Origin: Cyanobacteriota bacterium
GTDB taxonomy: Bacteria; Cyanobacteriota; Cyanobacteriia; Thermostichales; Thermostichaceae
Assembly: GCA_033764955.1 (NCBI GenBank)
Contig: JANRIL010000011.1
Coordinates: 32,001 to 96,000 of the forward strand
DNA: 64,000 nucleotides
Direction of reading: 5' to 3'
The translations under genes were made by a program, and so were the position numbers. Positions 48,115 to 64,000 of the stretch are shown here, piece after piece. How positions within the stretch are numbered: the first letter of the stretch is position 1; each line of letters opens with the position of its first letter. The notes beneath the pieces are model-generated. The model was not told the origin of the DNA, ran no database searches, and was given only the letters and a program-made list of their open reading frames with translations.

Positions 48115-48318
48115 CTATTCATAAGCAGGTTTCAGTTCCCAGGAATCTTCGATGGTGGTGGTTTCCTTTCCCCGTCGCCACTTGACTTTGTAACGACCCG
48201 TGCGGGTAATGCCAATGACTTCCCCAATAGGGTAGATAGGCCAGCCACAAGGATCTTTGGGAAAGCGGCGGGTGAGGGTGTTGCGGTAACTTACACGGTC
48301 GCCAATCTGGAATTCCAT
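48115..48318 (-). CDS. Small hypothetical protein (SH3/KOW-like)
   Basis: FQIGDRV...GEVIG...YKVKW; GGAG RBS. Confidence 0.55.
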   Translation of the reverse strand: MEFQIGDRVSYRNTLTRRFPKDPCGWPIYPIGEVIGITRTGRYKVKWRRGKETTTIEDSWELKPAYE

Positions 48319-48357
48319 ACTGAGATCTCCACTCAATTCACCCAAGCCGTAGGACAG

Positions 48358-48615
48358 TTATCGCCAGCCATATCCAGGCTTGGGACGAGTGTAATAGTCA
48401 GGGTGAACCGCACGGTCAGCCGCATCTTTTACGTCGTCATGGGCATAAGGGATCCCTCGTTGCAGGCATTCGTCCTTGAGGAGATCAATGAGTTCAGATA
48501 GGTCGATATCGGGGTTGGCTTTCTCAAGTTGACGGGCTAAGGTTCTAAGTTTCATGGTGGGTGGGGTGTCGGGGTGGAGCCTGGTACACTCCTTCACCAG
48601 GCGGTAGGGCGACAA
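48358..48615 (-). CDS. Small hypothetical protein
   Basis: ORF fits the co-oriented array and ends right at an array motif. Confidence 0.5.
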   Translation of the reverse strand: MSPYRLVKECTRLHPDTPPTMKLRTLARQLEKANPDIDLSELIDLLKDECLQRGIPYAHDDVKDAADRAVHPDYYTRPKPGYGWR

Positions 48616-48654
48616 AGAATAGGGATCCCCATCGGTTAGGGATCCCTAATCAAT

Positions 48655-49182
48655 CTATGCAGGTAGTTCCAACGGCTGAGCTTCTGCATCTTTGAGATGC
48701 CGGACATCTGCTAGGCGGGAAGCATAGAGATCCTGCTCACTGGCGAAGGCTTGCAGTTCTGTCACACGTTTCTTGTTCGACTCTTTCCACTCAAACTCGA
48801 CGGCGTAGTAGACTCCCAGATCACCGGAGCGCTTGGACATCTTGGCGGTGGTCACCCCTTGCCCGACAGCTTTGCTCTGGGATGCCAGATCGAGCATGAA
48901 GTCGAGAAAGTTATCCAAGCTCTGAGTTTTGAACAGAATGTGGCTGACGACATTACGCGGATCCACAAACAGAACTTCCAGCCAAGTTTGATGCGGATAG
49001 TCGAAAAGCTGATCCTCGAAGGTACGCCAAGATAGGATTTCCATTGCCAATGTGGATCCGATAAACTTGGATTCGCCAATTTTGAACACACCGGACTTGC
49101 AATCAGCGCGATACTGACAGGGGCGGCCAGGAATGTAGGTGATTCCTTTCAGGTCAGGGGTAGCAAATGCGTTCGCAAACAT
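48655..49182 (-). CDS. Hypothetical protein, possibly ssDNA-binding (beta-rich)
   Basis: Strong AAGGAG RBS, 175 aa; function is inference only. Confidence 0.55.
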   Translation of the reverse strand: MFANAFATPDLKGITYIPGRPCQYRADCKSGVFKIGESKFIGSTLAMEILSWRTFEDQLFDYPHQTWLEVLFVDPRNVVSHILFKTQSLDNFLDFMLDLASQSKAVGQGVTTAKMSKRSGDLGVYYAVEFEWKESNKKRVTELQAFASEQDLYASRLADVRHLKDAEAQPLELPA

Positions 49183-49233
49183 GATGATTTCTCCTTTTGA
49201 GAAACTAAGTTACACAATCACCAGAGGACTCAG

Positions 49234-49665
49234 TTAAGCTCCTATTTTTGACTGTTGTGCATTGATATATTCACGCAAATTCTGATATCCATTGGCAAAC
49301 AGAACAGCATAGCCATGTTTACAGCAAGCTTGCTTGAAAAATACCTTTTGATTCTGGTAGTCATCACAGGTGCAATGCAAGCTACTGCTTTGGAGTAAGA
49401 CTTGATGTTGATGCCCATTCTCTGGATTGAAAACGAGATAATGATTTTGAGAATTTAGCTTGATCTCCAACTCTGTAGCTAAAGACTTACGAGTTTCCAC
49501 AAAGTCTTGGTGGAAGGCTTTTCGAGACAGGAAGCGGGGACGGGATCCCTTGACTTGAGCGAGTATCACTCTAGGCCAGACTTGGATCTGGATGTGGTGA
49601 GGCATGACTCCCAGGATGCGGCTGGCAGCGGTGCGGGAATACAACATCTTCTCTTTCGTTATCAT
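49234..49665 (-). CDS. SWIM zinc-finger protein
   Basis: CTCDD...CKH motif. Confidence 0.75.
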   Translation of the reverse strand: MITKEKMLYSRTAASRILGVMPHHIQIQVWPRVILAQVKGSRPRFLSRKAFHQDFVETRKSLATELEIKLNSQNHYLVFNPENGHQHQVLLQSSSLHCTCDDYQNQKVFFKQACCKHGYAVLFANGYQNLREYINAQQSKIGA

Positions 49666-49700
49666 TGTTTAGCCCTCTTAACGACACCCATTCCGTAGGA

Positions 49701-50030
49701 CTAATACTCGCTACTGTGCATTAATGTTAGAACCCGTCTCGTTTGAGTTAGATCCGCTGGATCTGGGGAGAGATATTTCAAGCTCTGGTCGTAGTAGTCT
49801 ATCTTCCAGAAATACTTTTCTCCATTATAGTCAATTGCCCCAAAGTCATGCTCTCCATAAGGATCATTGTCTTCATTAAAGACATTAAACTGTCTGACTA
49901 GCTGGAGTAGTTCTGAGATATGGGATCCCAGTAATTGAACAGTTGGAGTGATGACAATGTAAGCATTCCAGGATTTGCGGAATTCGTCATTCAGCTGAGC
50001 AATTCTTTGAGTTGTTTGTGTGATTGACAT
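49701..50030 (-). CDS. DUF3768 domain protein
   Basis: IAQLND.FR, NDPYGEHDFG, FWKIDYYD, RVLTLM..SEY. Confidence 0.88.
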   Translation of the reverse strand: MSITQTTQRIAQLNDEFRKSWNAYIVITPTVQLLGSHISELLQLVRQFNVFNEDNDPYGEHDFGAIDYNGEKYFWKIDYYDQSLKYLSPDPADLTQTRRVLTLMHSSEY

Positions 50031-50067
50031 GGGAAGGTCTCCTTGTTTCACAATTGCCGTAGGACTG

Positions 50068-50421
50068 TCAATACATGATGTGACTGGGTTTATTAAGGGA
50101 CTTGGCAAGTTGGATGCTATGGGCAGTGCCGGGGCTGAATCCGTCCCAAAAGGCGACAATTACATCCGCCGCTTGAATAATGTCGTGATTGCGTCGGATC
50201 CCTGCTAACTTGCCGTGTTGATGCCAGTCGGCGGGGTGGATTTGGACAGGGATCCCTCTGGCACGAGCTGCTTGTTCCGCCGTCTGGTCAACGCCTCTGG
50301 CTCCACCACTAATGACGATGCAACCCTCTGGTAATTGAGCAACAAAATCCCGCACGGCTTTGAGATTCCAGTAAGTCCTGGAGCCAATGACTGCTACACG
50401 ACAGGGATGAGTGGTGAGCAT
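50068..50421 (-). CDS. SLOG superfamily (DUF2493/YspA-like) protein
   Basis: VIGSR, SGGARGVD, AGIRRN, AFWDG.SPGT. Confidence 0.85.
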   Translation of the reverse strand: MLTTHPCRVAVIGSRTYWNLKAVRDFVAQLPEGCIVISGGARGVDQTAEQAARARGIPVQIHPADWHQHGKLAGIRRNHDIIQAADVIVAFWDGFSPGTAHSIQLAKSLNKPSHIMY

Positions 50422-50454
50422 AAACTCTCCGTCAACTTCACCCCCGCCGTAGGA

Positions 50455-50628
50455 CTACAACTGGTCGGCTAGCGCAGTCAGGATCCGGTTCACATAGACC
50501 TCTTGTTCGCGCCAGCGGCCCCTTGGGGCATAGATCGGCACTTCTTCTGGTTGGCTATCAGGGAAATGTTCTGCAATCCAGACTAGGGCTTGTTCCATCA
50601 GGTAATCCAGGATTTGAGAATTGAGCAT
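50455..50628 (-). CDS. 57-aa hypothetical protein (not in ORF track)
   Basis: GGAG RBS, MLNSQILDYLMEQALVW..., bounded by array motifs on both sides. Confidence 0.55.
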   Translation of the reverse strand: MLNSQILDYLMEQALVWIAEHFPDSQPEEVPIYAPRGRWREQEVYVNRILTALADQL

Positions 50629-50666
50629 GAGTGTGTCTCCACATCGACACCCCCGCCGCAGGACTG

Positions 50667-50840
50667 TTAATCATCTCCCAGTAATCGAGTCATGAAATTG
50701 AACAGCTTCTCGCCGGAATCAGAATCCGAATCATCCAACGTAAACACCGCCATGCGCCTAGGGCACGCTAGCGCGAACACTACATTCACGTCTTCATCCA
50801 CATAGTAGATTTCTGGGGATCCGTTCTCTTGATCTGACAT
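50667..50840 (-). CDS. 57-aa hypothetical protein
   Basis: MSDQENGSPEIYY..., bounded by array motifs. Confidence 0.45.
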   Translation of the reverse strand: MSDQENGSPEIYYVDEDVNVVFALACPRRMAVFTLDDSDSDSGEKLFNFMTRLLGDD

Positions 50841-50959
50841 TTCATCGACCTTCACTGACGTCACCCACTCCTTAGGACAGCCTAAACCTTTCTTTAGAGG
50901 GAGATGGGGTCTGGGGAACGCGCAGGGGAAGGGTGGGGTAAGTTCCCCAGTGGAGAGGT

Positions 50960-50984
50960 AAAAAAAGGGGATCTCGGGATCCCC
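50960..50984 (-). terminator. Intrinsic terminator
   Basis: Minus strand GGGGATC-CCGA-GATCCCC followed by T7. Confidence 0.7.
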
Positions 50985-50992
50985 AACTTGAT

Positions 50993-51166
50993 TTAGCGGC
51001 TGACGGCGACGTAGATGTTGCCCCACTTGGACTTGGCAACACGGGCACCGGGATAGTGAGTGGAGAATGCCAGAGCCGTGTTGATGTCCTTAAAGTGGGC
51101 GATGTAGGCATCAGGGGTCAGGACTGTACGGGTGGCACCCCAGAGACGGGCAAAGTTGAAGCACAT
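50993..51166 (-). CDS. 57-aa hypothetical protein (not in ORF track)
   Basis: AAGAGG RBS, MCFNFARLWGATR...GNIYVAVSR, followed by terminator. Confidence 0.5.
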   Translation of the reverse strand: MCFNFARLWGATRTVLTPDAYIAHFKDINTALAFSTHYPGARVAKSKWGNIYVAVSR

Positions 51167-51727
51167 AGGAAAAACCTCTTAACGATGCCAGCACAAAGAT
51201 CCCGCCCCTCTCCTGCAAGCAAGGCTCAGGCACCTTGGAATATCGCAGGGACGAGAATATGCCGAGAAAGGCATGGACGACTCTTGCAGTCCGGCTGTTC
51301 GCGCCAGTGTGCCCAAGGCGCAATCAGTTGGTGGTTTTGGGTGGGACACGGTGCCGTGGCAGTGGAGAGGGATCCGCTGTGCCGCTTGACTCCCGACCTG
51401 GTGCCTCCCTATTCCTGTTCGGTCTAGATGCCGTCAACATTTGGGACATCAACATCTCAGGCACATCAACTTCTGGTGTGGGAGGGGAACGGAGTGCTGG
51501 TGGGTGGGGCGAATTGAGGGATCCCTGGGGAGAACGGGGGTATGGGGGAATGCGGCGGGTGGGTGGGTCAAGTTCCCCCATTGTGAGGTGGACAAGCTCT
51601 GTTGGACACGTCACCTGAGCAAGAGTCCCGACGTGCGGCAGCGGGTCGGTTCCATAGCCGGGTTTAGGGATCCCTTGGCTTAAGGAATAAGAACTGGGGA
51701 GAATAAATCCCCCCAGCCTTGTCAGAC

Positions 51728-52150
51728 TTAGATAGCTCGATTGAACCGGGCAGCACTGCGTTCTGCATTCAACGCCAAGAGGCTTTCGAGGTCATGCTGG
51801 TAGTGCTTGTGGGCAAATTCCACCAATTCTTCCAGACTGGCTTTGATGAATCCTCGGTCGAATTCGTCTTTGAACTGTTCCCAGGCTTCTGCATAGAGCT
51901 GTTTGATGGCTGCCGGGTCATATTCCGGGCGGCTGTAGGATCCATCTTTTAGGCGGACAGGAGGGGCAATGGGATCCAAGGTGCCATCATCTACTGCATC
52001 TTTGAAAATGCGTCCTTTGGACTCTTCCCAGACTAGGGACCGCAGGGTGTAGAAGACGGCTTGCTGTTTGCGAAAGGTTGATTGTTCGTCACGTTCACGG
52101 GTGGTGAGAGGGCGGAACTTGCTAGAGAGGGCTGACTTTTCAATGGACAT
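51728..52150 (-). CDS. Hypothetical protein
   Basis: GGAG RBS, start MSIEKS; followed by hairpin at about 51693-51717. Confidence 0.65.
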   Translation of the reverse strand: MSIEKSALSSKFRPLTTRERDEQSTFRKQQAVFYTLRSLVWEESKGRIFKDAVDDGTLDPIAPPVRLKDGSYSRPEYDPAAIKQLYAEAWEQFKDEFDRGFIKASLEELVEFAHKHYQHDLESLLALNAERSAARFNRAI

Positions 52151-52584
52151 AGGACAAACTCCAAAATCGATAACCCCGTGCCAGGGAGCAAGGCCAGAAG
52201 ACGGAAAGGGGCGACGGCAACCGTAGGGCTTGTTCGCGCCAGCGTGCCCAAGGCGCAAGTTTTTCCGACCTGCCTTTTTAGGAAAAAGTTTTGACGGCGT
52301 ACATTTCACCCCTTGGAGTCTGAGTCGCCGCAGATCCTACGCTCAGGGGTCGATTTCTGGGGTGTCTGTTTGTCCACGAAGTTTGCCATAAGCAGGGGTT
52401 CGCTTTACTGCTGAACTGGATGAACGGATTTTCATTGGGGAGTGGAATGGCGGCGCGGTGGTGGGTGGGTCAAGCCGCTTCATCATTAGGGATCCCTAAA
52501 AGTCAATAGGTTCTAGGGATCCCCTAAAACAAAGGGATCCCTCAAAACAACGAGATAGTGCTACGCACACACAAGGTCAGTTCC

Positions 52585-52746
52585 TCAAAATGGCCAGTCA
52601 AAAGGTAGGGATCCCCATTCTTCCATCTCCCATAATTCCCGCTCTGCTTCACGGAGTTTTTCTCGCTGGTCAATTTCTAAATCGAGGGATCCCCATTCGG
52701 CTTGAGCCACGAGGAAATCAACCATTGGGTCGCCACTTCTGTACAT
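52585..52746 (-). CDS. 53-aa acidic hypothetical protein (not in ORF track)
   Basis: MYRSGDPMVDFL...EWGSLPFDWPF, directly after an array motif. Confidence 0.4.
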   Translation of the reverse strand: MYRSGDPMVDFLVAQAEWGSLDLEIDQREKLREAERELWEMEEWGSLPFDWPF

Positions 52747-52762
52747 AATCAACACTCATCAA

Positions 52763-53095
52763 CTACACCCGCTCCGTAGGACTGTTGACACTTGCCAAGA
52801 TTTGCTCTTGTTGCCGTTGAATAACTTTTAGGGAGGAGACTCTATGGCAGATTGCAGTTTTTATATCTTCCATTTGGTCAAGTAAGTAGCCGTATGCTTC
52901 ACCAGCACCATTTTCAGGTAGAGCATCAAAGGCAGCGCGTAATGAGAAGTAGACCTTGAGTTTGTTTTTCAGCCATTGCGCTTGAGATTCTAGTTCTGCT
53001 AGTTGGATAGAATCGGGATTTCTGGCGTTCATTAACTCCAGGATTCGTTGCTCTAATTCGGTCAAATCAGAACTTAATTTCTGTAAGGCGGTCAT
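52763..53095 (-). CDS. Coiled-coil hypothetical protein
   Basis: GGAG RBS, first gene of the array. Confidence 0.6.
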   Translation of the reverse strand: MTALQKLSSDLTELEQRILELMNARNPDSIQLAELESQAQWLKNKLKVYFSLRAAFDALPENGAGEAYGYLLDQMEDIKTAICHRVSSLKVIQRQQEQILASVNSPTERV

Positions 53096-53200
53096 CGTTA
53101 AGTCTCCACATTTTCACTCCTTTCCGTAGGACTATTTGGTTTGGGTTTATTTGTTGCGTGGGATAGGGATCCCTTGACTCTGTGACGGTGGACAGGGAAC

Positions 53201-53244
53201 TGATATGGATTTGATATGGATTTAATACGGAACTAATACGGATT
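53201..53244. repeat. Four tandem 11-bp repeats (TRATAYGGA..) in divergent intergenic region
   Basis: TGATATGGATT TGATATGGATT TAATACGGAAC TAATACGGATT. Confidence 0.75.
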
Positions 53245-53346
53245 ATCGATTATGCCTTTGGCACGCTTGCGCGAACACTTGCCTAGTCATGTGCCCAGGT
53301 CTTCAAAGGACTCTGTGATACGGTCGGAATAGGGGGGATGTGAAGT

Positions 53347-53520
53347 ATGGACAAAGGCAAGATCAAGCAACTGCGCCTCTCTCTGGGGATGACTCAGGAA
53401 CAATTTGCGGCGGCTTTGGGGTGTACTACATCCACCGTTGTGCGCTGGGAAAGTGGCAAATCTTCTCCCTCCCCGTTGGCGCAACAATCCATGTTCAAAC
53501 TGGCTCCTGCGTTTGCCTAG
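53347..53520 (+). CDS. XRE/Cro-type HTH regulator, 57 aa (not in ORF track)
   Basis: MDKGKIKQLRLSLGMTQEQFAAALGCTTSTVVRWESGKSSP. Confidence 0.85.
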   Translation: MDKGKIKQLRLSLGMTQEQFAAALGCTTSTVVRWESGKSSPSPLAQQSMFKLAPAFA

Positions 53521-53586
53521 TCATCTGCTCTGGAGAACTGAATTCACCCTGAATATCGTGGTCATAAATGGACTTAGGGATCCGAT

Positions 53587-54297
53587 ATGGCACGAAATAA
53601 AGGGATTATTCAACTGCAAGGAACGGTAGGGGGTTTGACCTTCAAACGGGATGGCACGATTAGTCAGGCGGTGGGATCCCGTCCGGTGACGGCGGAACGA
53701 ACGAAGGAAAATAACACTGAATTTGCCATTGCTGCCAAGCAAGCCAAGGTGATCCGGGATGCCTTGCGGGGCTTAGATGTAGGCGACCGCTTTCTGGCAG
53801 GGCGGATGGTGAAGGTGGTGCGCTCTGGGGTGGCGTTGGATCCCGATAATGAGCGGGGTAAACGGATCTTGTCGAATAACGAGGCGCGGCAGGTGTTGCC
53901 TAAGTTTGAGTTGAACGGCAATGCCAATCTGACTTCGGTGGCTCCGCTGGCGTGGGTAGTGGCAGGAGATGCGCTGACGATTACCAAGATGGGGGGCGGG
54001 GTGCTGACTCCTCGGGATATTTATGCTCCAGCGGGGACTACGGATATCTCGGTGATGGCGTTGGTGGCGACTGTGAATTTGGATCCTGATGTGTTGAGCG
54101 TGGTGGAGGCGGGAATGACGGCGTTTCCGGTGGTGGGAAATCCGGGTGCGGCTGAGTGGAGTGTGCCGTTGCCGGAAGATCCAAACTTGCTGACTTTGGG
54201 GGCAGTGGGGGTGAAGTTCTTTCAGCGTGTCAACGGCGAGTTGTATTCGCTGCGGAATGGATCCTATGACGTGGCTCAGATTGTGGTGGTGCGGTAA
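53587..54297 (+). CDS. Hypothetical protein, candidate virion/structural protein
   Basis: 236 aa; basic N-terminal half, beta-rich C-terminal half; directly upstream of lysis-like genes. Confidence 0.6.
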   Translation: MARNKGIIQLQGTVGGLTFKRDGTISQAVGSRPVTAERTKENNTEFAIAAKQAKVIRDALRGLDVGDRFLAGRMVKVVRSGVALDPDNERGKRILSNNEARQVLPKFELNGNANLTSVAPLAWVVAGDALTITKMGGGVLTPRDIYAPAGTTDISVMALVATVNLDPDVLSVVEAGMTAFPVVGNPGAAEWSVPLPEDPNLLTLGAVGVKFFQRVNGELYSLRNGSYDVAQIVVVR

Positions 54298-54309
54298 GCC
54301 GGGGGTCAC

Positions 54310-54579
54310 ATGGAGAGTGCATTTCAAACGGTGAAGGGTTGGCTGACGGATGGCAAGGTGTTCCAGGGTCTCATGGTGGCGGGGCTTATTAAGCTGGTCA
54401 GCTTGGGCTTTGGTTTGCAGGAACAGGCTTTGCAAACGCAGCATCAGTTGACGGTTATTTCCGATGATCTGGTGGTGTTGAAAGGGGATGTGGATCAACT
54501 GAACCGGGTTTCAGCGGCTAATCAGGTTCACACCCAGTATTTTCTGGCACGGCTGGACAAGTTGGAGAAAAAGCAGTGA
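54310..54579 (+). CDS. Small membrane/coiled-coil protein (holin- or spanin-like)
   Basis: One hydrophobic segment plus coiled coil, basic C-terminus. Confidence 0.5.
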   Translation: MESAFQTVKGWLTDGKVFQGLMVAGLIKLVSLGFGLQEQALQTQHQLTVISDDLVVLKGDVDQLNRVSAANQVHTQYFLARLDKLEKKQ

Positions 54580-54764
54580 ATCATGGGGTGCTTTGTCTAA
54601 TTGTGATCATCTTTGCGGCGGGATCCCTGGGTTTGGCGGCGGTGGATCCCGAGTATCGTCCTCGGTTTGCGGATTTGGCGCAGATGGGGCTGAGTGGGTT
54701 CTTGGGGTATTTGGTGCCGTCGCCACTGGCTAAGAAAAAGGATGAGAAAGGAGTGGGGGAATGA
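54576..54764 (+). CDS. Small two-TM protein (holin-like)
   Basis: Two hydrophobic segments, charged tail; overlaps both neighbours. Confidence 0.55.
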   Translation: MNHGVLCLIVIIFAAGSLGLAAVDPEYRPRFADLAQMGLSGFLGYLVPSPLAKKKDEKGVGE

Positions 54765-55210
54765 ATAGTGTGCAGGTCAGCGTGGCGGAGCCAGATTGGA
54801 ATAATCCGGCGGCTCGATTATCGACGTATTTCCGGGTGGGGGAGATGACTTTGGGGGATCCCAGACGGATTCCACTGGATCCGGTGGTGAAGGCACGGAT
54901 CGTGAGGTTTGCCCAGGAGTTGAATAAGGTACGAGCGGCGTGGGGGAGTGGGTTGGGGGTGACGAGTTGGTATCGCCCTTACTTGGTGAATCTGGCGGTG
55001 GGGGGTGTCCCTAACAGTCAGCATGTGTTGGGCTGGGCGGCGGATGTCTATCCGGTCAATGGCAAGATCTCAGAGTTTCAGACCTGGATTGACCTGCGAT
55101 GGTCGGGGGGGTTGGGCTATGGGGCGCAGAAGGGTTTTGTGCATCTGGATGCGCGGGATGGGTTTCCCTGTTTTGGGGATAGGAAGAGGGGTGTACGTTG
55201 GATTTATTGA
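54761..55210 (+). CDS. Peptidase M15A family protein (endolysin-like)
   Basis: VTSWYR..N.AVGG..NSQH..G.AAD...GFVHLD.R. Confidence 0.88.
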   Translation: MNSVQVSVAEPDWNNPAARLSTYFRVGEMTLGDPRRIPLDPVVKARIVRFAQELNKVRAAWGSGLGVTSWYRPYLVNLAVGGVPNSQHVLGWAADVYPVNGKISEFQTWIDLRWSGGLGYGAQKGFVHLDARDGFPCFGDRKRGVRWIY

Positions 55211-55335
55211 TGGGGTAGAGGGATCCCTGACCTGCTCTTACCTCTAAATCCAGATAACGCCGCGCTCTGCGGCAAATTTGGAGTGCAGCGGAAAAATTGT
55301 CCGGCAGCAGCGCTTTGTTAAGCATGCCAAGCTCA

Positions 55336-56286
55336 CTAGTAACTTTTAATTTTCGGTGTTGCAAAGTTCGAAAATCCTGAGAAATCCGGGTAGATCGTTG
55401 AATGCCTGTAACCAAAGAGCTTATCTAGTCTTCGGCGAATATCCTCTTTTGCTTGCGCTTTAATTCTGAACGTATACAGGGCACCAGATCCAGCGCTTTT
55501 TCCCTTAACTGGTTAAAACACATGAGGTCTTGCTGCTATGCAGCACGCTTTTCTCCCTTCTTCAATCGTCCACCAACCGTCTTTATAGTTGGGAGACTTC
55601 GGAAATTGGAATTTCTTATTATCGGGCTTATTTGACGCAGGCACACCACCAAATAAGAAGCCCCCATTTTGGGCTGCGATTCGTGCGTCTAAATTGGAGG
55701 GTTTCCAAGCAAAAACCGACGTAGTCCATGCCTTCTTATCTATTCCATCTTCTCCGCCAGACTTCCATGGTTTGCTAAAATCGTCTTCCCATAAACGAAA
55801 AATATCATTCTCGTTAATTAGCCGATCGGTCACGTCAAATGCGAATAGTCTTGCGTCCTTATCTTCGTGAACTCGAACTCCGTTGTTCCATTTTTCTTCA
55901 ACCGCAAACCATACACCCACCCAAGCATTGAAAGTGATATCTATTAAGCGTGTAGGCGCACCATAATGTTGAAGCATTGCAAGCTGATTTAGTATAGAAA
56001 GCCGTCCCGTCTGGGAGGATGAGTGCAGCCCCCATCGGTGCAACTCAGCGAGAATATCTTTCTCTTCTTTCGCAATGTCATCTTCAGTAAGAACCTTACC
56101 TTTTGTAAGATTCATCCTTCGATACAAAGAACTATGAAGCGCCCAACTTGCGTCAATCTGACCTCGCCAAGCAAACTTAATATTCTTGCTTACGGCCTTT
56201 TCCATAACTTGGTTGATGACTGTAAGCAATCCATTAAAGTCGGCAATCTCTTTTTCAAAGGGCTTCCAGAAATCTTCAGCACTCAA
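55336..56286 (-). pseudogene. FRG domain protein with internal nonsense codon
   Basis: WRGQ, QHYGAPTRLID, RIAAQNG.F; same frame continues past TAA 55513 to ...TIYPDFSGF...TAG 55336. Confidence 0.8.
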
Positions 56287-56611
56287 AATATGCTTCCTTT
56301 TCGCTTAATCCGTGATTAAACTGCAGTGGGAGGTCTCCATGCGGATCTATCACTCAAATTGTAATGATAAACGGCATAAAAACCCAAGTTCTATTTGAAT
56401 GCTAGAATTGTATCTGAAAAGGACTATCAGGTCAAATTATATTAAGTTCCAAGAAGCTCACAGAGGGCTATGGATAATATGCGTATTGTTTGGATAATCG
56501 GCATAATCCATGAGCAACTTCCCAGCGGTGAACCCCAGGTTCGACAAAGTAAAGTACCCTTCCCACCACACCAAAATCCTGCGAGGGGATCATCCCGTAA
56601 ATTAGCGGAAA

Positions 56612-56708
56612 GGGTTTGTTCATCTGGATGCGTGTGCTGGGATCCCGTGTTTTAGGGAATAGGTAGTGCGGAACCCGGGGGATTTGTTGAGGGGGATAGA
56701 GGGATCCC
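56612..56708 (+). repeat. Degenerate duplicate of the endolysin 3' end and downstream bases (55132-55228)
   Basis: GFVHLDACAGIPCLGNR* versus GFVHLDARDGFPCFGDRK; both end ..TAGAGGGATCCC. Confidence 0.75.
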
Positions 56709-56844
56709 ATGTGGTCATTGGCTCCAGGCTTTTGCTTAAGATATCTCAGAGATTGAAGCCGATTTATCCCCAACACCTATTCACATAAATTTTGCTTCTT
56801 AGTATCTAGTAACTTGGTGTAAGTAGTTTCCTCAAATTTACTAT

Positions 56845-57285
56845 CTATACTAGATTCTTTACAGAAGCATTAGAGATCATGCACAACTCATTTGCCACCT
56901 GGACTCTATGACAGCGGCTTGGATCCAATTCGGCGCAAAGTAAAACTACATTATCAGTTTCGACAATTTTTGAGATTTCCCTCAGGATTAAATCTGCATT
57001 TTTAAGATCAGGTGGAACCCATTTATTGGTTTTAGTAGTATTTCCTAAAGCAGTTGCTGAAATATACTTTACACCAATTGATTTGCAAAAATTTTCTACT
57101 TCATCTCGATACCATATTCTGCTCCAAGCTTTGGGAGAAAGTCTCACATCAATTAGGTATTTAAGATCATATTGCAAGAAATAGCTTCCTAATTGAGAAT
57201 AGGAAGTTCGGTTGCCGTAACCGAAAGTAAAAATTACTTTTTGACTTAGTAGATCATCATCCATCTTTTTTCCTAATTGACTCAC
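56845..57285 (-). CDS. DUF488 domain protein
   Basis: IFTFGY, LIDVRLSP, LGN, LLCAE.DP..CHR. Confidence 0.85.
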   Translation of the reverse strand: MSQLGKKMDDDLLSQKVIFTFGYGNRTSYSQLGSYFLQYDLKYLIDVRLSPKAWSRIWYRDEVENFCKSIGVKYISATALGNTTKTNKWVPPDLKNADLILREISKIVETDNVVLLCAELDPSRCHRVQVANELCMISNASVKNLV

Positions 57286-58055
57286 CCTAAAGGTGGGTAG
57301 AACAGTCCAATAATCATAAAAGTGTTTTTATGATTCTTAAGATTCCCTACTATAAAGTGTAACTCCTTTTTGTACATAAACTCATTCTCTAGTTTTAGTC
57401 GGACTTTCTCGAGAGCTTCAGATTCCTTTCCAAGGATATCTTTAGCTTGTGATTTCAAACGACAATTTCTATACAATTGCATAATCTCCCAATCGCTTAT
57501 TGTGAAATTGTGAAGCGTATTGTCTGTTTCGAGAAATCGATAGCCAAACTGATAAGGTATTTTCTCCAAATTCGAAGAAGGCTCAAACATATCCATTTGA
57601 TCAAGTATAGCTTCTTGCCTTGGACTCCACTCCCTGCTAGTTTCTTTGTGAAAGTATTTAAGAATTTGTTTTGGCTTTATCATCCCTAAAGATTTATTTA
57701 AGGACTTTATTTCACACAAAGTTTGAGATTCAAGAGGATATAACAGGGATTTTCTCTCTGCCCAACTATTTTTAGTGTCAATTTTTCTTATGACCCTTAT
57801 CGACTGATCGTCGATCCGATAACTTTCGACTCTGTAATCCTTGTCGTTCCGCTCGATGTCTGCTTCAATAATTGACCATCGTGGATATTGCTGATCAATA
57901 CTAAGGTCGCGGAATCGGATTGGATAAATGCGGATCCATTCTATTGGCTGATCGTTATTATCAAGGAGAACTCCAGCAGTGCAGACAGTCTCTTTATATT
58001 TTCTGCTTATAGATGGATAGGTTTTTGTTGCAATCAGTATTCTCTTCCTTTCCAT
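57282..58055 (-). CDS. Hypothetical protein coupled to DUF488
   Basis: KTYP..S.KY.ETVCTAG..WIRIYPIRFR..DWE..IIGLFYPP; overlaps DUF488 start; low GC. Confidence 0.7.
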   Translation of the reverse strand: MERKRILIATKTYPSISRKYKETVCTAGVLLDNNDQPIEWIRIYPIRFRDLSIDQQYPRWSIIEADIERNDKDYRVESYRIDDQSIRVIRKIDTKNSWAERKSLLYPLESQTLCEIKSLNKSLGMIKPKQILKYFHKETSREWSPRQEAILDQMDMFEPSSNLEKIPYQFGYRFLETDNTLHNFTISDWEIMQLYRNCRLKSQAKDILGKESEALEKVRLKLENEFMYKKELHFIVGNLKNHKNTFMIIGLFYPPLG

Positions 58056-58150: not shown

Positions 58151-58804
58151 TTAGTGCGCCCGAAACGACCACAGCACTCGCCCGACTACCGCAAAATCCT
58201 CGGGTGGGTTCCGTAAATCAATCTGAAATGGTTCATAGGCAGGATTATCACTCATCACCCGCAATTGCCGCCCTGGCAGTAGATGCAACCGCTTCACCAA
58301 CAGCGTCTCATCCAACCGCAGCACACTAATCCCTTCCACCACCTCACGCGGCTTCGTATCCACCAAAATCAGATCCCCAGAACGCAACGTCGGTTCCATC
58401 GATTCCCCCCGCACCGAGATCAGATTCAACCCCTCAGGACTGGTGTGGCAGTGCAACCGGATCCACCCCTCACTAAAGGCAATCACCTCTTCCGGATCAA
58501 CCTCTTCCACAAACGTGCCCAACCCTGCCCCGGCACTGATGTCATAAATCGGGATCCGTACCAACCGATCTTCTGACGGTGGCTGAGGCATCTTGCGAAA
58601 CATCGGACCCTCACCACTCACCAACCAATCCACACTCACCCCCGAACAGCGGGAAATCAACGCCAACCGATCCGCCGTCGGCTGGGATCCCGACATATAT
58701 TTGCGGAGCGTACTATCCGGCAAGCCACAGCGATTGGCGAAATGAAAGACCGTTTCTTCACCCAACAGCAAGCGCAGACGGTCTTGGATGGTTTGTTTGG
58801 ACAT
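58151..58804 (-). CDS. CI/LexA-like repressor (HTH plus S24 peptidase)
   Basis: N-terminal HTH, SAGAG cleavage region, GESMEP Ser and VKRL Lys. Confidence 0.92.
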   Translation of the reverse strand: MSKQTIQDRLRLLLGEETVFHFANRCGLPDSTLRKYMSGSQPTADRLALISRCSGVSVDWLVSGEGPMFRKMPQPPSEDRLVRIPIYDISAGAGLGTFVEEVDPEEVIAFSEGWIRLHCHTSPEGLNLISVRGESMEPTLRSGDLILVDTKPREVVEGISVLRLDETLLVKRLHLLPGRQLRVMSDNPAYEPFQIDLRNPPEDFAVVGRVLWSFRAH

Positions 58805-58959: not shown

Positions 58960-59175
58960 TTGAATCGAGAGGATATCAAGGCTGTGTTGCGGAAGCAGGG
59001 ATATACCCTGTCCCATGCGGCAAGAGAGCTAGGAGTCAGTAAGCAGGCGTTGACTATGGTTCTGTCTGGCAAGCGTTCATCACGGATTGAGGCATGGATT
59101 GCCGAGCAGTTGGCGATGCGACCAGAAGAGGTGTGGCCGGAACGATACTCACAGGATGAAGCAGGTGAATCTTGA
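58960..59175 (+). CDS. Ner/Nlp-family DNA-binding protein
   Basis: DIKAVLRKQGYTLS...IAEQL...PEEVWPERY. Confidence 0.85.
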   Translation: MNREDIKAVLRKQGYTLSHAARELGVSKQALTMVLSGKRSSRIEAWIAEQLAMRPEEVWPERYSQDEAGES

Positions 59176-59218: not shown

Positions 59219-61393
59219 ATGTTTGACATCCGAGAACGCATCGAGTTTGACCGCAATGGACGGGCGTTCTGTCCCAGTTGCGAGATTAAGAAGGGGCGCA
59301 GACCGAGGCAGAAATCGCTGGCGGTGGTGCCGGGATCTGGTGGTGCTTACATCTGTCATGCTGGATGCACGGTGGACGAGATCCGGGCGGCGGTGGGTCA
59401 GCCTAAGTCCTCATCCATGCCTTTCTCGCATCCACAACGACCACACGAGCAGGATCCACCTTTCTACACAGAATCTCAGGTGATGAAGAATGTCGGGATC
59501 CTGGTGAATGGTAAAACTCCTGATGCAGTGGCTGCTCGACAGTGGCTGGAAAAGCGCGGCTTCACCACGGACATGATCCTGCACAACAGGCTGGGTTTAT
59601 TGGGATCCCATCTGCAAATCCCCATCCCCACGGATGATTCCAATTCCCAATTTCACCTCAAGAGCCGCATCGCCCCTTGGACAGGGAATACGGCTTGGGC
59701 ACAGAAAGGGATCCCAGCGATGGTCTTCTTTACGCATAAACCAGAAGGCGCAACCCAAACCTGGCTATGTGAAGGGGAATGGGATGCCCTGCTCTTGGGT
59801 TGGAAAGTCAGAGAAGCTGGGATCCAAGATATCGCAGTGGCTACCTTTACCTGTGGCTGCAACGCTATCCCGATGCAACTGGAATTGGAGCGGTTGGTGG
59901 GAGAGGTGATTATTTTCTACGACCGTGACCAGCCGGGGCAAAACGGATCCGAGAAGTTAGCCAAAAAACTTGGATCCTGTGCCCGTATCGCCCAGGTGCC
60001 TGCACCGGATATTTTTCCTAAGGGCTGGGATGTTTCTGATGCGCTTAATGCTGGTTTCACTCTAAGAGATCTGCAACAAGCTGCTAACCAATCCACTCCC
60101 TATTTGGGGGATAAAAGTCCTGCCCAGGAAGTGTATGGAGATCTCCTTTCTCGACTGGAACGAGCCTATCAATTGGAGTCCGCTTCAGAGCGGATTTATC
60201 ATCTGGAATTGCTCAGCCGGGAAGTGCGGATCCCAACTCCCCGCCCGGCCTCGATGTGGATGAACCATATTGCGGAAAAGGACACCAAGGATCCGCTGGA
60301 AGTTCACCAGTTTGTGGATAAATCGCCCGAGCGTCGTCCCTTCTTGATTCCTGGTTTTCTCCCCACCGGAACGATTGTGGTGTTGGTGGCGGATGGCGGC
60401 ACCGGGAAAACCTTGTTAGCAAACAACCTCTGTTTGTCGATAGCCAAAGGCGGATCCTGGAATGGTAAGCCTGTGAAACAAGGACGGGTATTGATCATCC
60501 AATCGGATGAACCAGAACTGGAATGTGCGGCGCGTCTACGAGATGCCAATTTTCCAGACTTGGATCCTGGATGGGTTTATGTCAAAACTAACTGGCAGTT
60601 CTCGCAATTGCCATTGTTGAAGAAGTGGTTGCAGCAATACCAGCCTGCACTGGTGATGATTGACTCGCTGACGGCCACCAATCGCCACAGCGAAGCGGAA
60701 GAACGAGACACCGCTTATGGGCTGGTGCTTTATGAGCTACGGGATCTAGCCAATCAATATGGGACAACATTCTTGGTGCTGCACCATACCAACAAGCTAG
60801 GGATTGAACGAGGCACCACCGCGATCCGTGACAACGTGGGAGAAGTCTGGTTACTCAAGCACGGAGACAAAGGGGATCCGAGCAACTTAGAACGCAAGCT
60901 GGTCATCGACAAATCCCGCACCGGATGTAATGACACCCACACCCTGGAACTCAACGATGAGGATTTCTCTTGGATCCTCAAACCAAAGGATCCGAATCAA
61001 GAGGGCAAAACTCCTTTGGAAGATCGCTTGCTGGATTTTATGGAGCGGACTGCCGGGATCCCGCGTGAGATTGAGGAGATTGCCCATGAGTTTCATGTCA
61101 GTTGGAGCAGTGCCCGTCGTGCTCTCAAAAAGTTATGGCGACTGGGGTATGTCAATGAAGAGACTGTGCAATCTGGATCCGTGGGTAAACCGAAGAAGGT
61201 CTACACCCACCCCCTCGTGACTAATATTCCAAACCCAAGCCCAGAGCCGGATCCGAATATTATTCATCTTTCCCCTGATTCTGAATATTATTCCCAACCC
61301 AGTCCTGGAGAGGCTTCCGAATATTATTCAGGCTCCGCCTCGCTGACGCGAACACCAACTACTCCTGTGTATAACCCTGCTCGACCCTTCTGA
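59219..61393 (+). CDS. Primase-helicase replication protein (Zn finger, TOPRIM, RecA-like AAA, wHTH)
   Basis: CPSC..CHAGC, CEGEWDA, YDRDQPG, GWDVSD, ADGGTGKT, MIDSL, LHHTNK. Confidence 0.9.
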   Translation: MFDIRERIEFDRNGRAFCPSCEIKKGRRPRQKSLAVVPGSGGAYICHAGCTVDEIRAAVGQPKSSSMPFSHPQRPHEQDPPFYTESQVMKNVGILVNGKTPDAVAARQWLEKRGFTTDMILHNRLGLLGSHLQIPIPTDDSNSQFHLKSRIAPWTGNTAWAQKGIPAMVFFTHKPEGATQTWLCEGEWDALLLGWKVREAGIQDIAVATFTCGCNAIPMQLELERLVGEVIIFYDRDQPGQNGSEKLAKKLGSCARIAQVPAPDIFPKGWDVSDALNAGFTLRDLQQAANQSTPYLGDKSPAQEVYGDLLSRLERAYQLESASERIYHLELLSREVRIPTPRPASMWMNHIAEKDTKDPLEVHQFVDKSPERRPFLIPGFLPTGTIVVLVADGGTGKTLLANNLCLSIAKGGSWNGKPVKQGRVLIIQSDEPELECAARLRDANFPDLDPGWVYVKTNWQFSQLPLLKKWLQQYQPALVMIDSLTATNRHSEAEERDTAYGLVLYELRDLANQYGTTFLVLHHTNKLGIERGTTAIRDNVGEVWLLKHGDKGDPSNLERKLVIDKSRTGCNDTHTLELNDEDFSWILKPKDPNQEGKTPLEDRLLDFMERTAGIPREIEEIAHEFHVSWSSARRALKKLWRLGYVNEETVQSGSVGKPKKVYTHPLVTNIPNPSPEPDPNIIHLSPDSEYYSQPSPGEASEYYSGSASLTRTPTTPVYNPARPF
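61255..61329. repeat. Three GAATATTATTC inverted-repeat motifs in primase 3' end (candidate origin iterons)
   Basis: Copies at 61255, 61283, 61319. Confidence 0.65.
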
Positions 61394-61404
61394 GGATCCG
61401 CATC

Positions 61405-63531
61405 ATGGCAACAGCAACCAAGCTCAGAACCCCTAGAAACAAATCCGCCGAGGTGGAATGGAGCCATTACCAAGAAGCCATTTTTGATTGGGCAGCTCAC
61501 GGATCCGGTCATGCCCTGGTCAATGCCGTGGCGGGATCCGGCAAGACTCAAACCCTGCGCGGGCTGGTCAGTCGGATCCCTTCTGACAAGAAGGTGGCTG
61601 TCTTAGCTTTCAATAACCACATGGCGGCGGAGCTGGCAGCTAAACTACCCAAGCGGATTACCGTCAGCACGATCCACCGGATGGGAATGTTTATGCTGAC
61701 TCGCTACTTTCGGTCAACCTTCCAATGCAACGAGTCGAAGTATCACGATCTGGCGACGGCTGCGGTGGAGCAGTTACGACCCAACTTCGCCTCTCTGCCA
61801 TCCAAGGAGTTAAAAGCAGTTGAACGAGAATGTCGGGGATTCCTCAAAGAGATTATCCACTACCTGCAAATCACCCTGACAGATCCGACTGAGGAGAACA
61901 TCCACCAATTGATTGGACACTTTGGACTGGAGACACCAGATCCTGCATTACTGGAATTGCTCCTTCCTTTACCTGCCAAACTTCTCGACCAAGGCAAAGC
62001 GTTAGGGGTGGTTCGCGCCAGCGGCGACTTGTCGCATCAACAAAATATCGGGCTGGATGATCTGCTCTGGCTGCCGCATGTGTTAGACCTGCAACCTGTC
62101 CAGAAAGACTGGGTGCTTGTAGATGAAGCCCAAGACTTGAGCCGTGCCCAGTTGGAATTGGTGCTGAAACTCCCCTCTGAAACAGGACGGATGGTGTTTG
62201 TGGGGGATCCCCATCAAGCCATTTTCGGATTCGCGGGGTCGGACGATCAATCTTGGGAACGGATCCGTGAAGCAATCCAGCCCAAGGAATTTCCCCTTTC
62301 CATTACTTATCGCTGCCCCACATCCCATGTGGCACTGGCATCCCGCCTAGTTCCCCAAATCGAGGCTAGACCGAATGCCCCGGCGGGGACGATTTCCGTG
62401 ATCCATCCTGGCAGCATCAAGCACCAGGTCAAGGTGGGAGATTTGGTCATCTGCCGCTTCATGGCTCCCTTAATTGCCCTGTGCCTGAAACTGGTCATAA
62501 ACAGTGGGATCCCTGCCAAAGTGAGGGGACGAGATCTAGGTAAGATGCTCATTTCCTTGACCAAAGATGTGGCAGACCATTTCCCCCATAACTTCTTGTC
62601 TGAACTGCGAAATCACGTTGCTGCCAAGGTGGAAATCTACCAGCGGGATGGGAAGGAATCTGCCATTGAATCCATCCATGATCGATCCCTGGCATTGGAG
62701 TCTTGTTTTGAGGCATTCGGGCTGAAGTGTCGCACTGTCCAAGATTTCTGCCAACGGATTGAGGGATTATTTGATGATGATGCCCCGTTAGCCAACCATG
62801 TCATCCTAGCCACGATCCATCGGGCTAAAGGAGACGAAGCAGAACGAGTTTTTCTACTTAAATCCGACTCGATGCCTGCCACATACTTAACTATAACAAA
62901 CTGGCAAACCCAGCAAGAACTGCATCTGCTTTATGTAGCGCTGACTCGCTCGAAGGGATCCCTATTTCTGGTGCCCATGCCCAAGAAGGTGGATCTGATG
63001 GATGAGTTGTTGGTGGATCCGTTTGGTGGGATCCAGTTTCCTAAAAGTCCTCTCTCTATTCCAGAGCCAATTACTCCACCCGCTGTAGAGCAATCTGCTC
63101 TAGTCATTTCTGATTTTGACATTGAGGTGGATGCTCTGTACCAGGCCATGAGAAAGATGCTCTTGGAGTTTGTTGAGGTCGCTCAGGTTTGGCAAGCAGA
63201 TTTCCCAGAGCAAATGAAAGTCGTTTGGGTGCGGTTGGGATCCGAACTTAAAGGATCCAACTGGGGGATCCCCTTCCGTTTTCACCTGGAACAACCAGAA
63301 CCGAAATCCCGCTCACCAGCTAAATTTCTACCGTTTCTAAGGGTAGGGGATATCTGCCGTTACATTGGGCCAGATGGAGCGATGAGAGTAACCTGCCAGG
63401 GGCGGGATCTCAAGGTGCTTGAGGTGAAAGGATCCATAGCCACCGTCAAGGCCATAAAAGATTACTTTCACCACCACGAGTGGATCCGTCCTTATGACAT
63501 TGAGATCCAACATTTAAGAAAGAAATCTTGA
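61405..63531 (+). CDS. UvrD/Rep family SF1 helicase
   Basis: AVAGSGKT, DEAQD, VGDPHQAIFGF, TIHRAKG.E, YVALTR. Confidence 0.92.
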   Translation: MATATKLRTPRNKSAEVEWSHYQEAIFDWAAHGSGHALVNAVAGSGKTQTLRGLVSRIPSDKKVAVLAFNNHMAAELAAKLPKRITVSTIHRMGMFMLTRYFRSTFQCNESKYHDLATAAVEQLRPNFASLPSKELKAVERECRGFLKEIIHYLQITLTDPTEENIHQLIGHFGLETPDPALLELLLPLPAKLLDQGKALGVVRASGDLSHQQNIGLDDLLWLPHVLDLQPVQKDWVLVDEAQDLSRAQLELVLKLPSETGRMVFVGDPHQAIFGFAGSDDQSWERIREAIQPKEFPLSITYRCPTSHVALASRLVPQIEARPNAPAGTISVIHPGSIKHQVKVGDLVICRFMAPLIALCLKLVINSGIPAKVRGRDLGKMLISLTKDVADHFPHNFLSELRNHVAAKVEIYQRDGKESAIESIHDRSLALESCFEAFGLKCRTVQDFCQRIEGLFDDDAPLANHVILATIHRAKGDEAERVFLLKSDSMPATYLTITNWQTQQELHLLYVALTRSKGSLFLVPMPKKVDLMDELLVDPFGGIQFPKSPLSIPEPITPPAVEQSALVISDFDIEVDALYQAMRKMLLEFVEVAQVWQADFPEQMKVVWVRLGSELKGSNWGIPFRFHLEQPEPKSRSPAKFLPFLRVGDICRYIGPDGAMRVTCQGRDLKVLEVKGSIATVKAIKDYFHHHEWIRPYDIEIQHLRKKS

Positions 63532-63574: not shown

Positions 63575-63805
63575 GTGATGAAAAAGATCAGACCCAAATT
63601 AGACCAAAACTGGATCTCAACCCTACAACTGGCTAAAGCTTTAGGTGTTTGCACCAAAACTCTCTACCGACTCAAAAATAGTGGTGCCCTTAAACCTGGG
63701 AAGCACTACATCATTGTCAGCGTCTCATCGGCTATCAGACCTACTTTTCGTTGGCATCTCGAAAGGTGCGAGTTGGCAATGGGAATCACCTTAGAAAAAC
63801 GCTAA
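63575..63805 (+). CDS. Excisionase-like HTH protein
   Basis: WISTLQLAKALGVCTKTLYRL; convergent with integrase. Confidence 0.7.
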   Translation: MMKKIRPKLDQNWISTLQLAKALGVCTKTLYRLKNSGALKPGKHYIIVSVSSAIRPTFRWHLERCELAMGITLEKR

Positions 63806-64000
63806 TCAGAAACCCAGATCGGGCACCGAAACTGTCTCAACCTTGCCTGCATAGTGACGATGAATCACTTCCGGTTTATTCCCAACCCATTCAGATACTT
63901 GTCTGTAAGTGGCATCCTTCCGCTCAATACAATGGCTAATAAAGGTATCCCGCATCGCATAGGGTTCACGATAATGGCTAACCTTGCCTTCTTCGACCAA
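63806..64000 (-). CDS. Tyrosine recombinase/integrase, C-terminal end (truncated by window)
   Basis: YREPYAMRDTFISH...WVGNKPEVIHRHY matches box II and catalytic Tyr of cyanobacterial integrases. Confidence 0.8.
   Translation of the reverse strand: MVEEGKVSHYREPYAMRDTFISHCIERKDATYRQVSEWVGNKPEVIHRHYAGKVETVSVPDLGF

Follow-up and report, generated by a model that had tools for sequence, protein, structure and literature searches.

The operon at positions 53347-55210 of the window (the whole 64,000-nucleotide stretch of cyanobacterial DNA analysed here, C14:32001-96000 of its assembly) encodes an XRE-type regulator, a 236-amino-acid (aa) soluble protein, here called X, two small membrane proteins, and an M15 peptidase. 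As judged from its genes, the lysis-type character of this module is well supported, since it combines a signal-less enzyme of an endolysin family with overlapping small membrane proteins, and since the hydrolase is swapped in its relatives among four non-homologous families (M15_3, C39_2, GH24, and DUF5675). The X family was repeatedly found in first position of operons made up of small membrane proteins, with or without a peptidoglycan hydrolase, on islands and plasmids of Cyanobacteria and Bacteroidota. We give about an even chance to the reading that the module is a regulated lysis-type "exit" cassette of a capsid-less, satellite-like island, in which X would be a soluble accessory or passenger of a holin-dependent route.

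Gene content and packing of the module

The module and its presumed control region comprise the following features:

53096-53346, no strand: divergent intergenic region, presumed control region, between a 110-aa gene (- strand) and the XRE gene (+ strand)
53347-53520, + strand: XRE-type helix-turn-helix (HTH) regulator, 57 aa (Pfam HTH_3, E 3e-13)
53587-54297, + strand: X, soluble, 236 aa, from a large family without a name; its N-half is basic and predicted to be helix-rich, its C-half to be an immunoglobulin (Ig)/FN3-like beta-sandwich (AlphaFold2 model, pLDDT 81.1)
54310-54579, + strand: 89-aa protein with an N-terminal transmembrane (TM) segment (KD19 1.67, residues 17-36) and a tail that looks coiled-coil-like by eye
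54576-54764, + strand, GTG start: 62-aa holin-like membrane protein (KD19 2.75, residues 1-26) with a C-terminus charged by eye
54761-55210, + strand: M15 zinc peptidase, 149 aa, predicted cytoplasmic endolysin (Pfam Peptidase_M15_3, PF08291, E 9e-15; PHROG endolysin phrog_894, E 2.8e-20)

A preliminary description of this DNA had placed these five open reading frames (ORFs), tightly packed, on a G/T-rich coding strand, and all of them were recovered where it had located them, on the plus strand. The XRE and X genes are separated by 66 nt and X and the 89-aa gene by 12 nt, followed by two overlaps of 4 nt. The G/T richness is reflected in a GC skew of +0.19 at 53-54 kb, reaching +0.36 at 54-55 kb, with AT skews of -0.06 and -0.155, respectively. 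An open frame of 241 aa, rich in R, H, Q, and P, lies opposite X (53773-54498, - strand); it was rejected as a gene and considered a shadow of the strong skew.

The same five genes were found in the same order, with 78-91% aa identity, in locus L001 of a Spirulinaceae metagenome-assembled genome. Comparison with paralogues in the own genome yielded dN/dS values of 0.09 (XRE), 0.14 (X), 0.15 (89-aa protein), and 0.13 (M15). These four genes are thus under purifying selection, and the conserved order together with the low dN/dS values indicates that the genes of the module are real and not chance ORFs.

Analysis of hydropathy detected neither a signal peptide nor a TM segment in the M15 peptidase, in whose translation the zinc-ligand motifs SQH..GWAAD and VHLD were spotted by eye only; a search of PDB by sequence returned no relative of this enzyme. 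The 62-aa protein has one strong TM segment by hydropathy and a second, weaker hydrophobic stretch seen by eye. It is homologous to a 63-aa protein adjoining the hydrolase in the related locus L014 (pairwise E 5e-7), and a 47%-identical copy is present in the neighbouring island. The 89-aa protein, with a single, marginal TM segment, is weakly similar to an 82-aa TM protein of locus L020 (E 0.005). It would act as a holin partner, an antiholin or a spanin-like protein, being i-spanin-like in outline only, and no lipoprotein partner ORF was seen for it. Its PHROG label, "major head protein" (phrog_1859), was discounted, as it derives from a weak 30-residue match of the TM segment (E 0.001).

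Two decayed copies of the module were detected elsewhere in the own genome. In the first (C25:10498-11711), the XRE, X, and 89-aa genes are intact, the 62-aa gene is interrupted by a fragment of an IS4/5-type transposase, and M15 is missing. In the second (C11:16297-17023), an internal deletion joins fragments of the XRE, X, and 62-aa genes, with an intact M15 gene downstream.

Protein X and its relatives in two phyla

X has neither a TM segment nor a signal peptide by hydropathy and yielded no matches in Pfam, PHROGs, PADLOC or NCBIfam; likewise, none of 59 diverse family members matched PHROGs (0/59). A word-based search retrieved 37 relatives, and a profile built from 26 of them identified 1,507 cluster representatives at E <= 1e-3, 668 of which reached E <= 1e-10. 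Nearly all representatives are of about 250 aa and match end to end. Most belong to Bacteroidota: the nearest ESM-Atlas clusters are "hypothetical proteins" of this phylum that share no Pfam family, and the X family was present in 24 of 301 Bacteroidota genomes sampled, with at most four copies per genome. These data bear out the resemblance to an uncharacterised Bacteroidota family that the preliminary description had noted. DUF6266 was rejected as the identity of the family, since it was an ESM Atlas lead only (13% of one cluster, score 0.78) and no member matched it in Pfam. A literature search found no description of X or of its link to lysis operons, although a text search would miss work using other family names.

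Conservation is densest in the N-half of X, which includes the invariant or near-invariant residues R38, E41, N42, E45, F46, K54, R57, R73, D85, R90, G91, and R93, whereas the C-half is variable except for a short C-terminal motif. Residues 1-40 are basic (7 K+R versus 2 D+E), as are residues 1-120 (20 versus 12). The AlphaFold2 model, obtained from the 26-sequence alignment (pLDDT 81.1, pTM 0.73), predicts three short strands at the N-terminus, followed by helices (37-63, 70-81, and 97-103) and an eight-strand beta-sandwich (121-235). The basic N-terminal arm and beta-rich body proposed in the preliminary description are therefore recognizable, with the C-half being all-beta in the model. However, the structure prediction and Foldseek comparison that it had suggested as a check produced no jelly-roll capsid match. 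No PDB entry was matched at E <= 1e-3, the best being FN3/monobody chains and Ig-like domains of beta-galactosidase, and the matches of the C-half were only to FN3, Ig, and C2 sandwiches of extracellular type, all of them weak. A single BFVD match, at 8.4e-4, corresponded to an uncharacterised crAss-like protein (TMq 0.20). By sequence, X hit only RNA polymerase alpha in PDB, at chance level (E 0.015), and the family profile hit nothing. Given these weak scores, the predicted fold is not firmly classified. A homo-trimer prediction scored 0.00, which, as it was run without controls, counts neither for nor against self-assembly.

The neighbourhood comparison advised in the preliminary description, which had named dissociation from lysis genes as evidence to the contrary, found homologues of X linked to such genes. 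Among the 28 external loci compared for the cyanobacterial-type neighbourhood, X is preceded by an XRE homologue in 12, all of them of cyanobacterial type. In a clade of about 47% identity to X, the gene order is XRE, X, a proline-rich NuiA-like protein, a peptidoglycan hydrolase, a 63-aa protein, and a TM/coiled-coil protein of 72-82 aa, the hydrolase being a Peptidase_C39_2 in L014 and L016 and a GH24 Phage_lysozyme in L020. In L014, the TM/coiled-coil protein is followed by an additional protein with a tail-lysin-like domain. Out of the eight cyanobacterial-type loci with at least about 0.8 kb of sequence 3' of X, four contain lysis genes (L001, L014, L016, and L020). As for the others, L019 has a small membrane protein only, the L015 contig stops after the NuiA-like gene, and L017 and L018 have none. 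Frameshifted or truncated metagenomic copies were observed in L001 and L018-L020. The NuiA-like protein encoded between X and the hydrolase (L014:905-1705, L020:6888-7592) has about 235-265 aa; its N-half is rich in proline, and it contains a nuclease-inhibitor-like NuiA domain (E 1e-6 to 4e-6).

In Bacteroidota, 29 loci were compared with flanks of 1.5 kb. DUF5675, a C82-like peptidase and candidate phage lysin according to the source consulted (bioRxiv 10.64898/2026.04.11.717860), is encoded directly 3' of X in 10 of them. A TM protein of about 77 aa and another of about 58 aa with a KKHKK-type tail are each present in 12 loci, and 16 loci have one or both of them. Other neighbours are an excisionase-like 67-aa HTH protein (18/29), DUF6943 (6/29), for which no paper was found in the literature search, and an integrase within reach (4/29). 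One genome displays the layout [DUF6943, two cargo genes][TM, DUF5675, X on the opposite strand][HTH, integrase], and the copies within it share X-DUF5675-TM and DUF6943 but differ in the genes between. Repeated units of about 5-6 kb were observed in L079 (G246) and L082 (G126), where X, the small TM genes, and the flanks are kept and the cargo differs, resembling a cargo hotspot. The G126 units additionally keep DUF5675 and the flanking DUF6943, and the L079 cargo consists of a 114-aa HTH protein and a 415-aa protein that is HipA-like by eye. No convincing direct repeat was found when attachment repeats of the Flavobacteriia-type island L082 were sought. In Flavobacterium, copies of X adjoin genes for type I restriction-modification, a caspase-like peptidase, HEPN/HNH/methylase proteins, and a Schlafen-like helicase.

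X was also found in eight plasmid records (25-325 kb), one from Marivirga, in which X is followed by DUF5675, and seven from a single strain of Fulvitalea axinellae (Cytophagales), whose plasmids (44-325 kb) carry one homologue each. On one of the latter, pFA12, an excisionase-like HTH gene and a 71-aa TM/coiled-coil ORF precede X. Some genomes hold three or four X paralogues, many of them with no lysis genes beside them.

The module shares with phage holin-endolysin(-spanin) cassettes a signal-less, cytoplasmic peptidoglycan hydrolase whose gene adjoins one or two overlapping genes for small membrane proteins, as well as the free exchange of hydrolase type among relatives (M15_3, C39_2, GH24, DUF5675). 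In contrast to such cassettes, it resides on capsid-less islands and plasmids instead of phages, it is led by a conserved soluble protein of about 240 aa that is absent from the phage collections searched, and its small membrane proteins match none of the named holin or spanin families.

The carrier island

The assembly comprises 3.8 Mb in 48 contigs and is 89% complete. An exact repeat of 48-50 nt occurs three times on C14, at window positions 24276-24323, at the window-equivalent positions 65246-65295, and at C14:139505-139554, where it makes up the 3' portion of a complete tRNA-Phe(GAA) gene (L086:3508-3580); ARAGORN detected no tRNA within the window. The three repeats and the intact tRNA gene therefore delimit two islands of about 41-42 kb each, arranged in tandem at tRNA-Phe. 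The first one spans the window from 24.3 kb to 65.3 kb, ending 1.3 kb beyond it, and contains, besides the module, the following features:

24276-24323, - strand: left-hand attachment repeat, a 3' piece of tRNA-Phe (48-50-nt exact repeat)
24745-47868, - strand: DISARM class-1-like cargo with DrmC, DrmB, DrmA, DrmMI, a 2493-aa DEAD+UvrD helicase, and DrmD, interspersed with PIN/HTH and MmeI-TRD genes (PADLOC, Pfam)
48115-53095, - strand: left arm of small genes, among them those of DUF3768, a YAcAr/SLOG protein, and three proteins without an assigned family (193, 56, and 110 aa) (Pfam)
55513-58055, - strand: low-GC defence patch with an FRG-domain protein (PDC-S15) and the PDC-M19 A/B pair (DUF488 and a 257-aa protein) (PADLOC)
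58151-58804, - strand, and 58960-59175, + strand: divergent switch of a CI-like S24 repressor and a Cro-like HTH protein (Pfam Peptidase_S24 6e-19, HTH_35 9e-18; PHROG phrog_4 repressor 8e-50)
59219-63531, + strand: replication module with a primase-helicase (Toprim + AAA_25) and a UvrD-like helicase (Pfam; PHROG phrog_239 primase/helicase 1.6e-28)
63575-63805, + strand: small HTH ORF, excisionase-like by eye (ORF list)
63806-64000, - strand: C-terminus of a tyrosine integrase, the rest of which is encoded beyond the window at L010:1-1095(-) (Pfam Phage_integrase 5e-10; PHROG integrase 1e-34)

A selection of the island ORFs was scanned, 38 against Pfam and 22 of these also against PHROGs, the genes at 24.7-47.9 kb being compared with Pfam and PADLOC only. 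The ORFs scanned yielded no match to terminase, portal, tail or capsid families, in agreement with the preliminary description, which had reported the first three to be missing. In addition, Terminase_6N, TerL_ATPase, and Phage_capsid gave zero matches across the assembly, which is 89% complete. Judged by its genes, the carrier is not a virus.

The island resembles both phage-inducible chromosomal islands (PICIs) and tycheposons in its integration at the 3' end of a tRNA gene, leaving partial tRNA repeats and a tandem array, and in its content, i.e., a tyrosine integrase, a divergent repressor/Cro pair, a primase-helicase, and cargo, with no capsid or conjugation genes found. PICIs are recognized by their induction through a helper phage and by genes for packaging or the redirection of capsids (terS, cpm/ppi or capsid genes). 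In contrast, no terS, capsid-morphogenesis or major capsid protein gene was detected among the ORFs scanned. The size of the island, 41 kb owing to a DISARM insert of 23 kb, also sets it apart from PICIs, as does the presence of its own lysis cassette, which to our knowledge is not a feature of these satellites. For tycheposons, the source consulted describes integration at tRNA genes with partial repeats, a tyrosine recombinase, replication genes, and cargo in elements devoid of capsid and conjugation genes (bioRxiv 10.1101/2020.12.28.424599). The island displays these features, and the likeness, as far as that description goes, is one of architecture.

Besides its two occurrences on C14, the CI-Cro-primase/helicase-UvrD backbone is found on five or more further contigs. 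No fewer than six complete or fragmentary copies were recognized in the own genome, with 50-92% aa identity, on contigs C8, C14, C30, C35, and C36 (also C24 and C31). The left-arm gene set accompanies the module both in L001 and in other copies of the own genome. The second island, of about 42 kb (C14:97246-139580), uses the same tRNA-Phe in mirror orientation, even though the repeats are direct, and its integrase points towards that of the first island, with the repeat common to both lying between them. It contains an integrase, a PIN_2 gene, UvrD, a primase-helicase, and CI, with its left arm near the intact tRNA. Between these genes and the left arm lie ordinary-looking genes for Lnt, a two-component pair, a penicillin-binding protein, and IS1.

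The DISARM class-1-like system is complete by PADLOC (DrmC 9e-112, DrmB 7e-72, DrmA 2e-292, DrmMI 0, and DrmD 0) and is located wholly within the tRNA-Phe island. PIN/HTH genes, a separate MmeI-TRD gene, and the gene of the 2,493-aa fused DEAD-box and UvrD helicase (37107-44588) lie between DrmA and DrmD. In the defence patch next to the module, PADLOC identified PDC-S15 (4e-26), PDC-M19A (4e-13), and PDC-M19B (5e-72), and GC content drops to 0.36-0.47 (55.5-58.1 kb). An imperfect direct repeat of about 104 nt (77% identity; 55126-55227 and 56605-56708) flanks the FRG/PDC-S15 gene (55513-56286), which therefore looks like a cassette inserted just 3' of the M15 gene.

Proposed function, rival explanations, and significance

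If the module is a regulated exit cassette, induction of the island, either by cleavage of the S24 CI-like repressor or by infection with a helper phage, would be followed by transcription of the XRE-gated operon. The 62-aa protein and its 89-aa partner would then permeabilise the inner membrane, allowing the signal-less M15 peptidase to reach and cut the peptidoglycan, and the cell would open. We infer the timing, the trigger, the holin function, and the role of X in this scheme from what was observed, namely gene content, spread of the family, its context link, and the predicted fold. A role as accessory or passenger is proposed for X because it lacks a signal peptide, is persistently accompanied by holin-like partners, has a C-domain of a type common outside the cytoplasm, and possesses a basic, conserved N-half. 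X may thus act at or beyond the envelope, being released in a manner similar to type 10 secretion or helping to breach the outer layers.

Type 10 secretion loci, as described in the sources consulted, pair a signal-less cargo with a holin and a peptidoglycan hydrolase, examples being chitinase, typhoid toxin, and Tc toxin loci (PMC10109510, PMC13284979, PMC10847048). By gene arrangement, the module would resemble them in placing a signal-less X beside a holin-like protein and a peptidoglycan peptidase outside a functional prophage. It differs from the loci covered by these sources in its cargo family, its hosts (Cyanobacteria and Bacteroidota), and its mobile, multi-copy context, and in that many X genes are devoid of such partners.

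Several observations weigh against the exit-cassette reading. A tblastn search with the X of the window and a Flavobacterium homologue returned no match in 50,697 phage records, although X, if it were a general lysis helper, should also occur in phages that infect these hosts. Neither the 62-aa nor the 89-aa protein matched a named holin or spanin family in Pfam or PHROGs. Out of the 29 Bacteroidota loci, 13 have neither of the TM proteins nor DUF5675, and in the two Fulvitalea plasmids examined (L048, pFA12, and L049, pFA9) X lies near rep/parAB; X can therefore stand without a lysis cassette. In Cyanobacteria, the family is rare, with one match in 400 other genomes sampled. This sole match, L085 (G521:C152; 343 bits), may be a contaminant, since its score is of Bacteroidota type and its contig, of 2.5 kb, is very short. 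With regard to expression, the promoter/terminator consensus scan revealed nothing at the expected operon borders, no sigma-70-like site being recognized in 53096-53346, where any promoter is presumed; the sequencing runs matching the stretch were small-share DNA runs only, with no RNA run among them. Mobility of the island, helper dependence, and SOS control are also deduced from gene content.

The preliminary description had gone further, suggesting that X may be the small jelly-roll capsid protein of a tailless virus or capsid-forming satellite, on the grounds of its basic N-terminal arm, its beta-rich body, and its position before lysis genes. The lysis context on which it relied was confirmed, but not the capsid. 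In the model, X would resemble the single jelly-roll capsids of small tailless viruses in length, basic N-terminal stretch, and eight-strand beta-sandwich of the C-half. Nevertheless, no relatives were found in the phage genomes, in PHROGs or in two scans of IMG/VR, which were pattern-based, so that distant relatives could escape them. Moreover, carriers that range from the 41-kb island to plasmids of 25-325 kb, together with lone paralogues, fit poorly with one capsid of fixed capacity, and X is linked to neither a packaging ATPase nor a Rep gene. There is thus no support for X as a jelly-roll capsid. In a broader version, X would be a virion or particle protein, i.e., a capsid, a coat of the excised DNA, or a binder or redirector of a helper capsid, with the lysis genes serving to free the particles. 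The satellite-like architecture with own lysis genes but no packaging genes, the basic N-terminus and beta-sandwich body, and the Ig-like domains common on phage virion surfaces speak in its favour, as does the presence of at least six related backbones in an assembly with no prophage structural genes, which points to another transfer route. Since X is missing from the viral collections, is carried by elements of such different size, and often stands alone, we regard a particle role as very unlikely. A related and more far-reaching proposal, also quite unlikely in our estimate, is that X, a holin-like protein, and a swappable peptidoglycan hydrolase form an exit or transfer device of unrecognised, minimal elements or plasmids devoid of capsid genes, in Bacteroidota and some Cyanobacteria. 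X would coat or escort the excised DNA, or seed a particle or vesicle, and programmed lysis would lead to spread without a conventional virion or conjugation machinery.

Alternatively, the three components may constitute an abortive-infection system of a new, lysis-based kind, an idea about as novel as the preceding one and compatible with the evidence. X would sense a phage through its variable beta-sandwich and trigger the small membrane proteins, the hydrolase being optional, to kill or lyse the host ahead of phage maturation, while XRE would keep the module silent. The location of the module between DISARM and the candidate systems PDC-S15/PDC-M19, the defence-type neighbours of the Flavobacterium copies, and the repeated units, which keep X-DUF5675-TM and DUF6943 and exchange the genes between as a defence hotspot does, all agree with this view. 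So does the finding that small TM proteins accompany X more often than a hydrolase (16 versus 10 of 29), as expected of membrane effectors. However, X, the 89-aa and 62-aa proteins, and M15 match no PADLOC family (0), and XRE matches generic HTH parts only; three or four near-identical copies per genome and occurrence on seven plasmids of one strain are unusual for defence; and the N-half of X is its most conserved part, yet the membrane partners are non-homologous between phyla. On balance, defence by abortive infection is considered rather unlikely. X could also bind nucleic acids and regulate the lysis genes or the induction of the island, acting as a late activator, antiterminator or anti-repressor. 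Its position straight after the HTH regulator, as the first gene of the operon, is comparable to that of Q, which precedes the lysis genes in lambda. Its conserved basic N-half with invariant Arg/Lys residues, and the plasmid copies within rep/par control regions, would agree with such a function. Against it, no DNA-binding fold or family was detected for X, transcription factors of bacteria rarely have an Ig-like C-domain, and the 12 nt between X and the next gene leave no room for a regulated promoter or terminator; we therefore assign this regulatory role only a small probability. Finally, the damaged copies on C25 and C11 and the frameshifted or truncated metagenomic copies might indicate a decaying prophage lysis remnant, with X as a left-over phage gene of no present function. 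This is highly improbable in view of the purifying selection on all four genes tested, the recurrence of the architecture in two phyla with swapped hydrolases, the failure to find X in phage genomes, and the failure to find remnants of structural genes, both in the scanned set of island ORFs and, as regards the families sought there, in the assembly.

The type of island is familiar, as are its defence cargo and its lysis enzymes. What is new is the presence of a lysis-cassette-like operon on capsid-less mobile elements and its tie to a large unnamed family across two phyla. The comparison removes the attractive but unsupported idea of a new tailless virus, while the argument from gene context that had led to it was sound. 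A family of 1,507 representatives, with no name in Pfam, NCBIfam or PHROGs, is thereby connected to lysis-type gene sets on non-viral mobile DNA. This connection offers a testable handle on how capsid-less elements, including defence-laden islands at tRNA genes, exit the host cell, on the reason why such islands would retain lysis genes of their own, and on the job of the X family.

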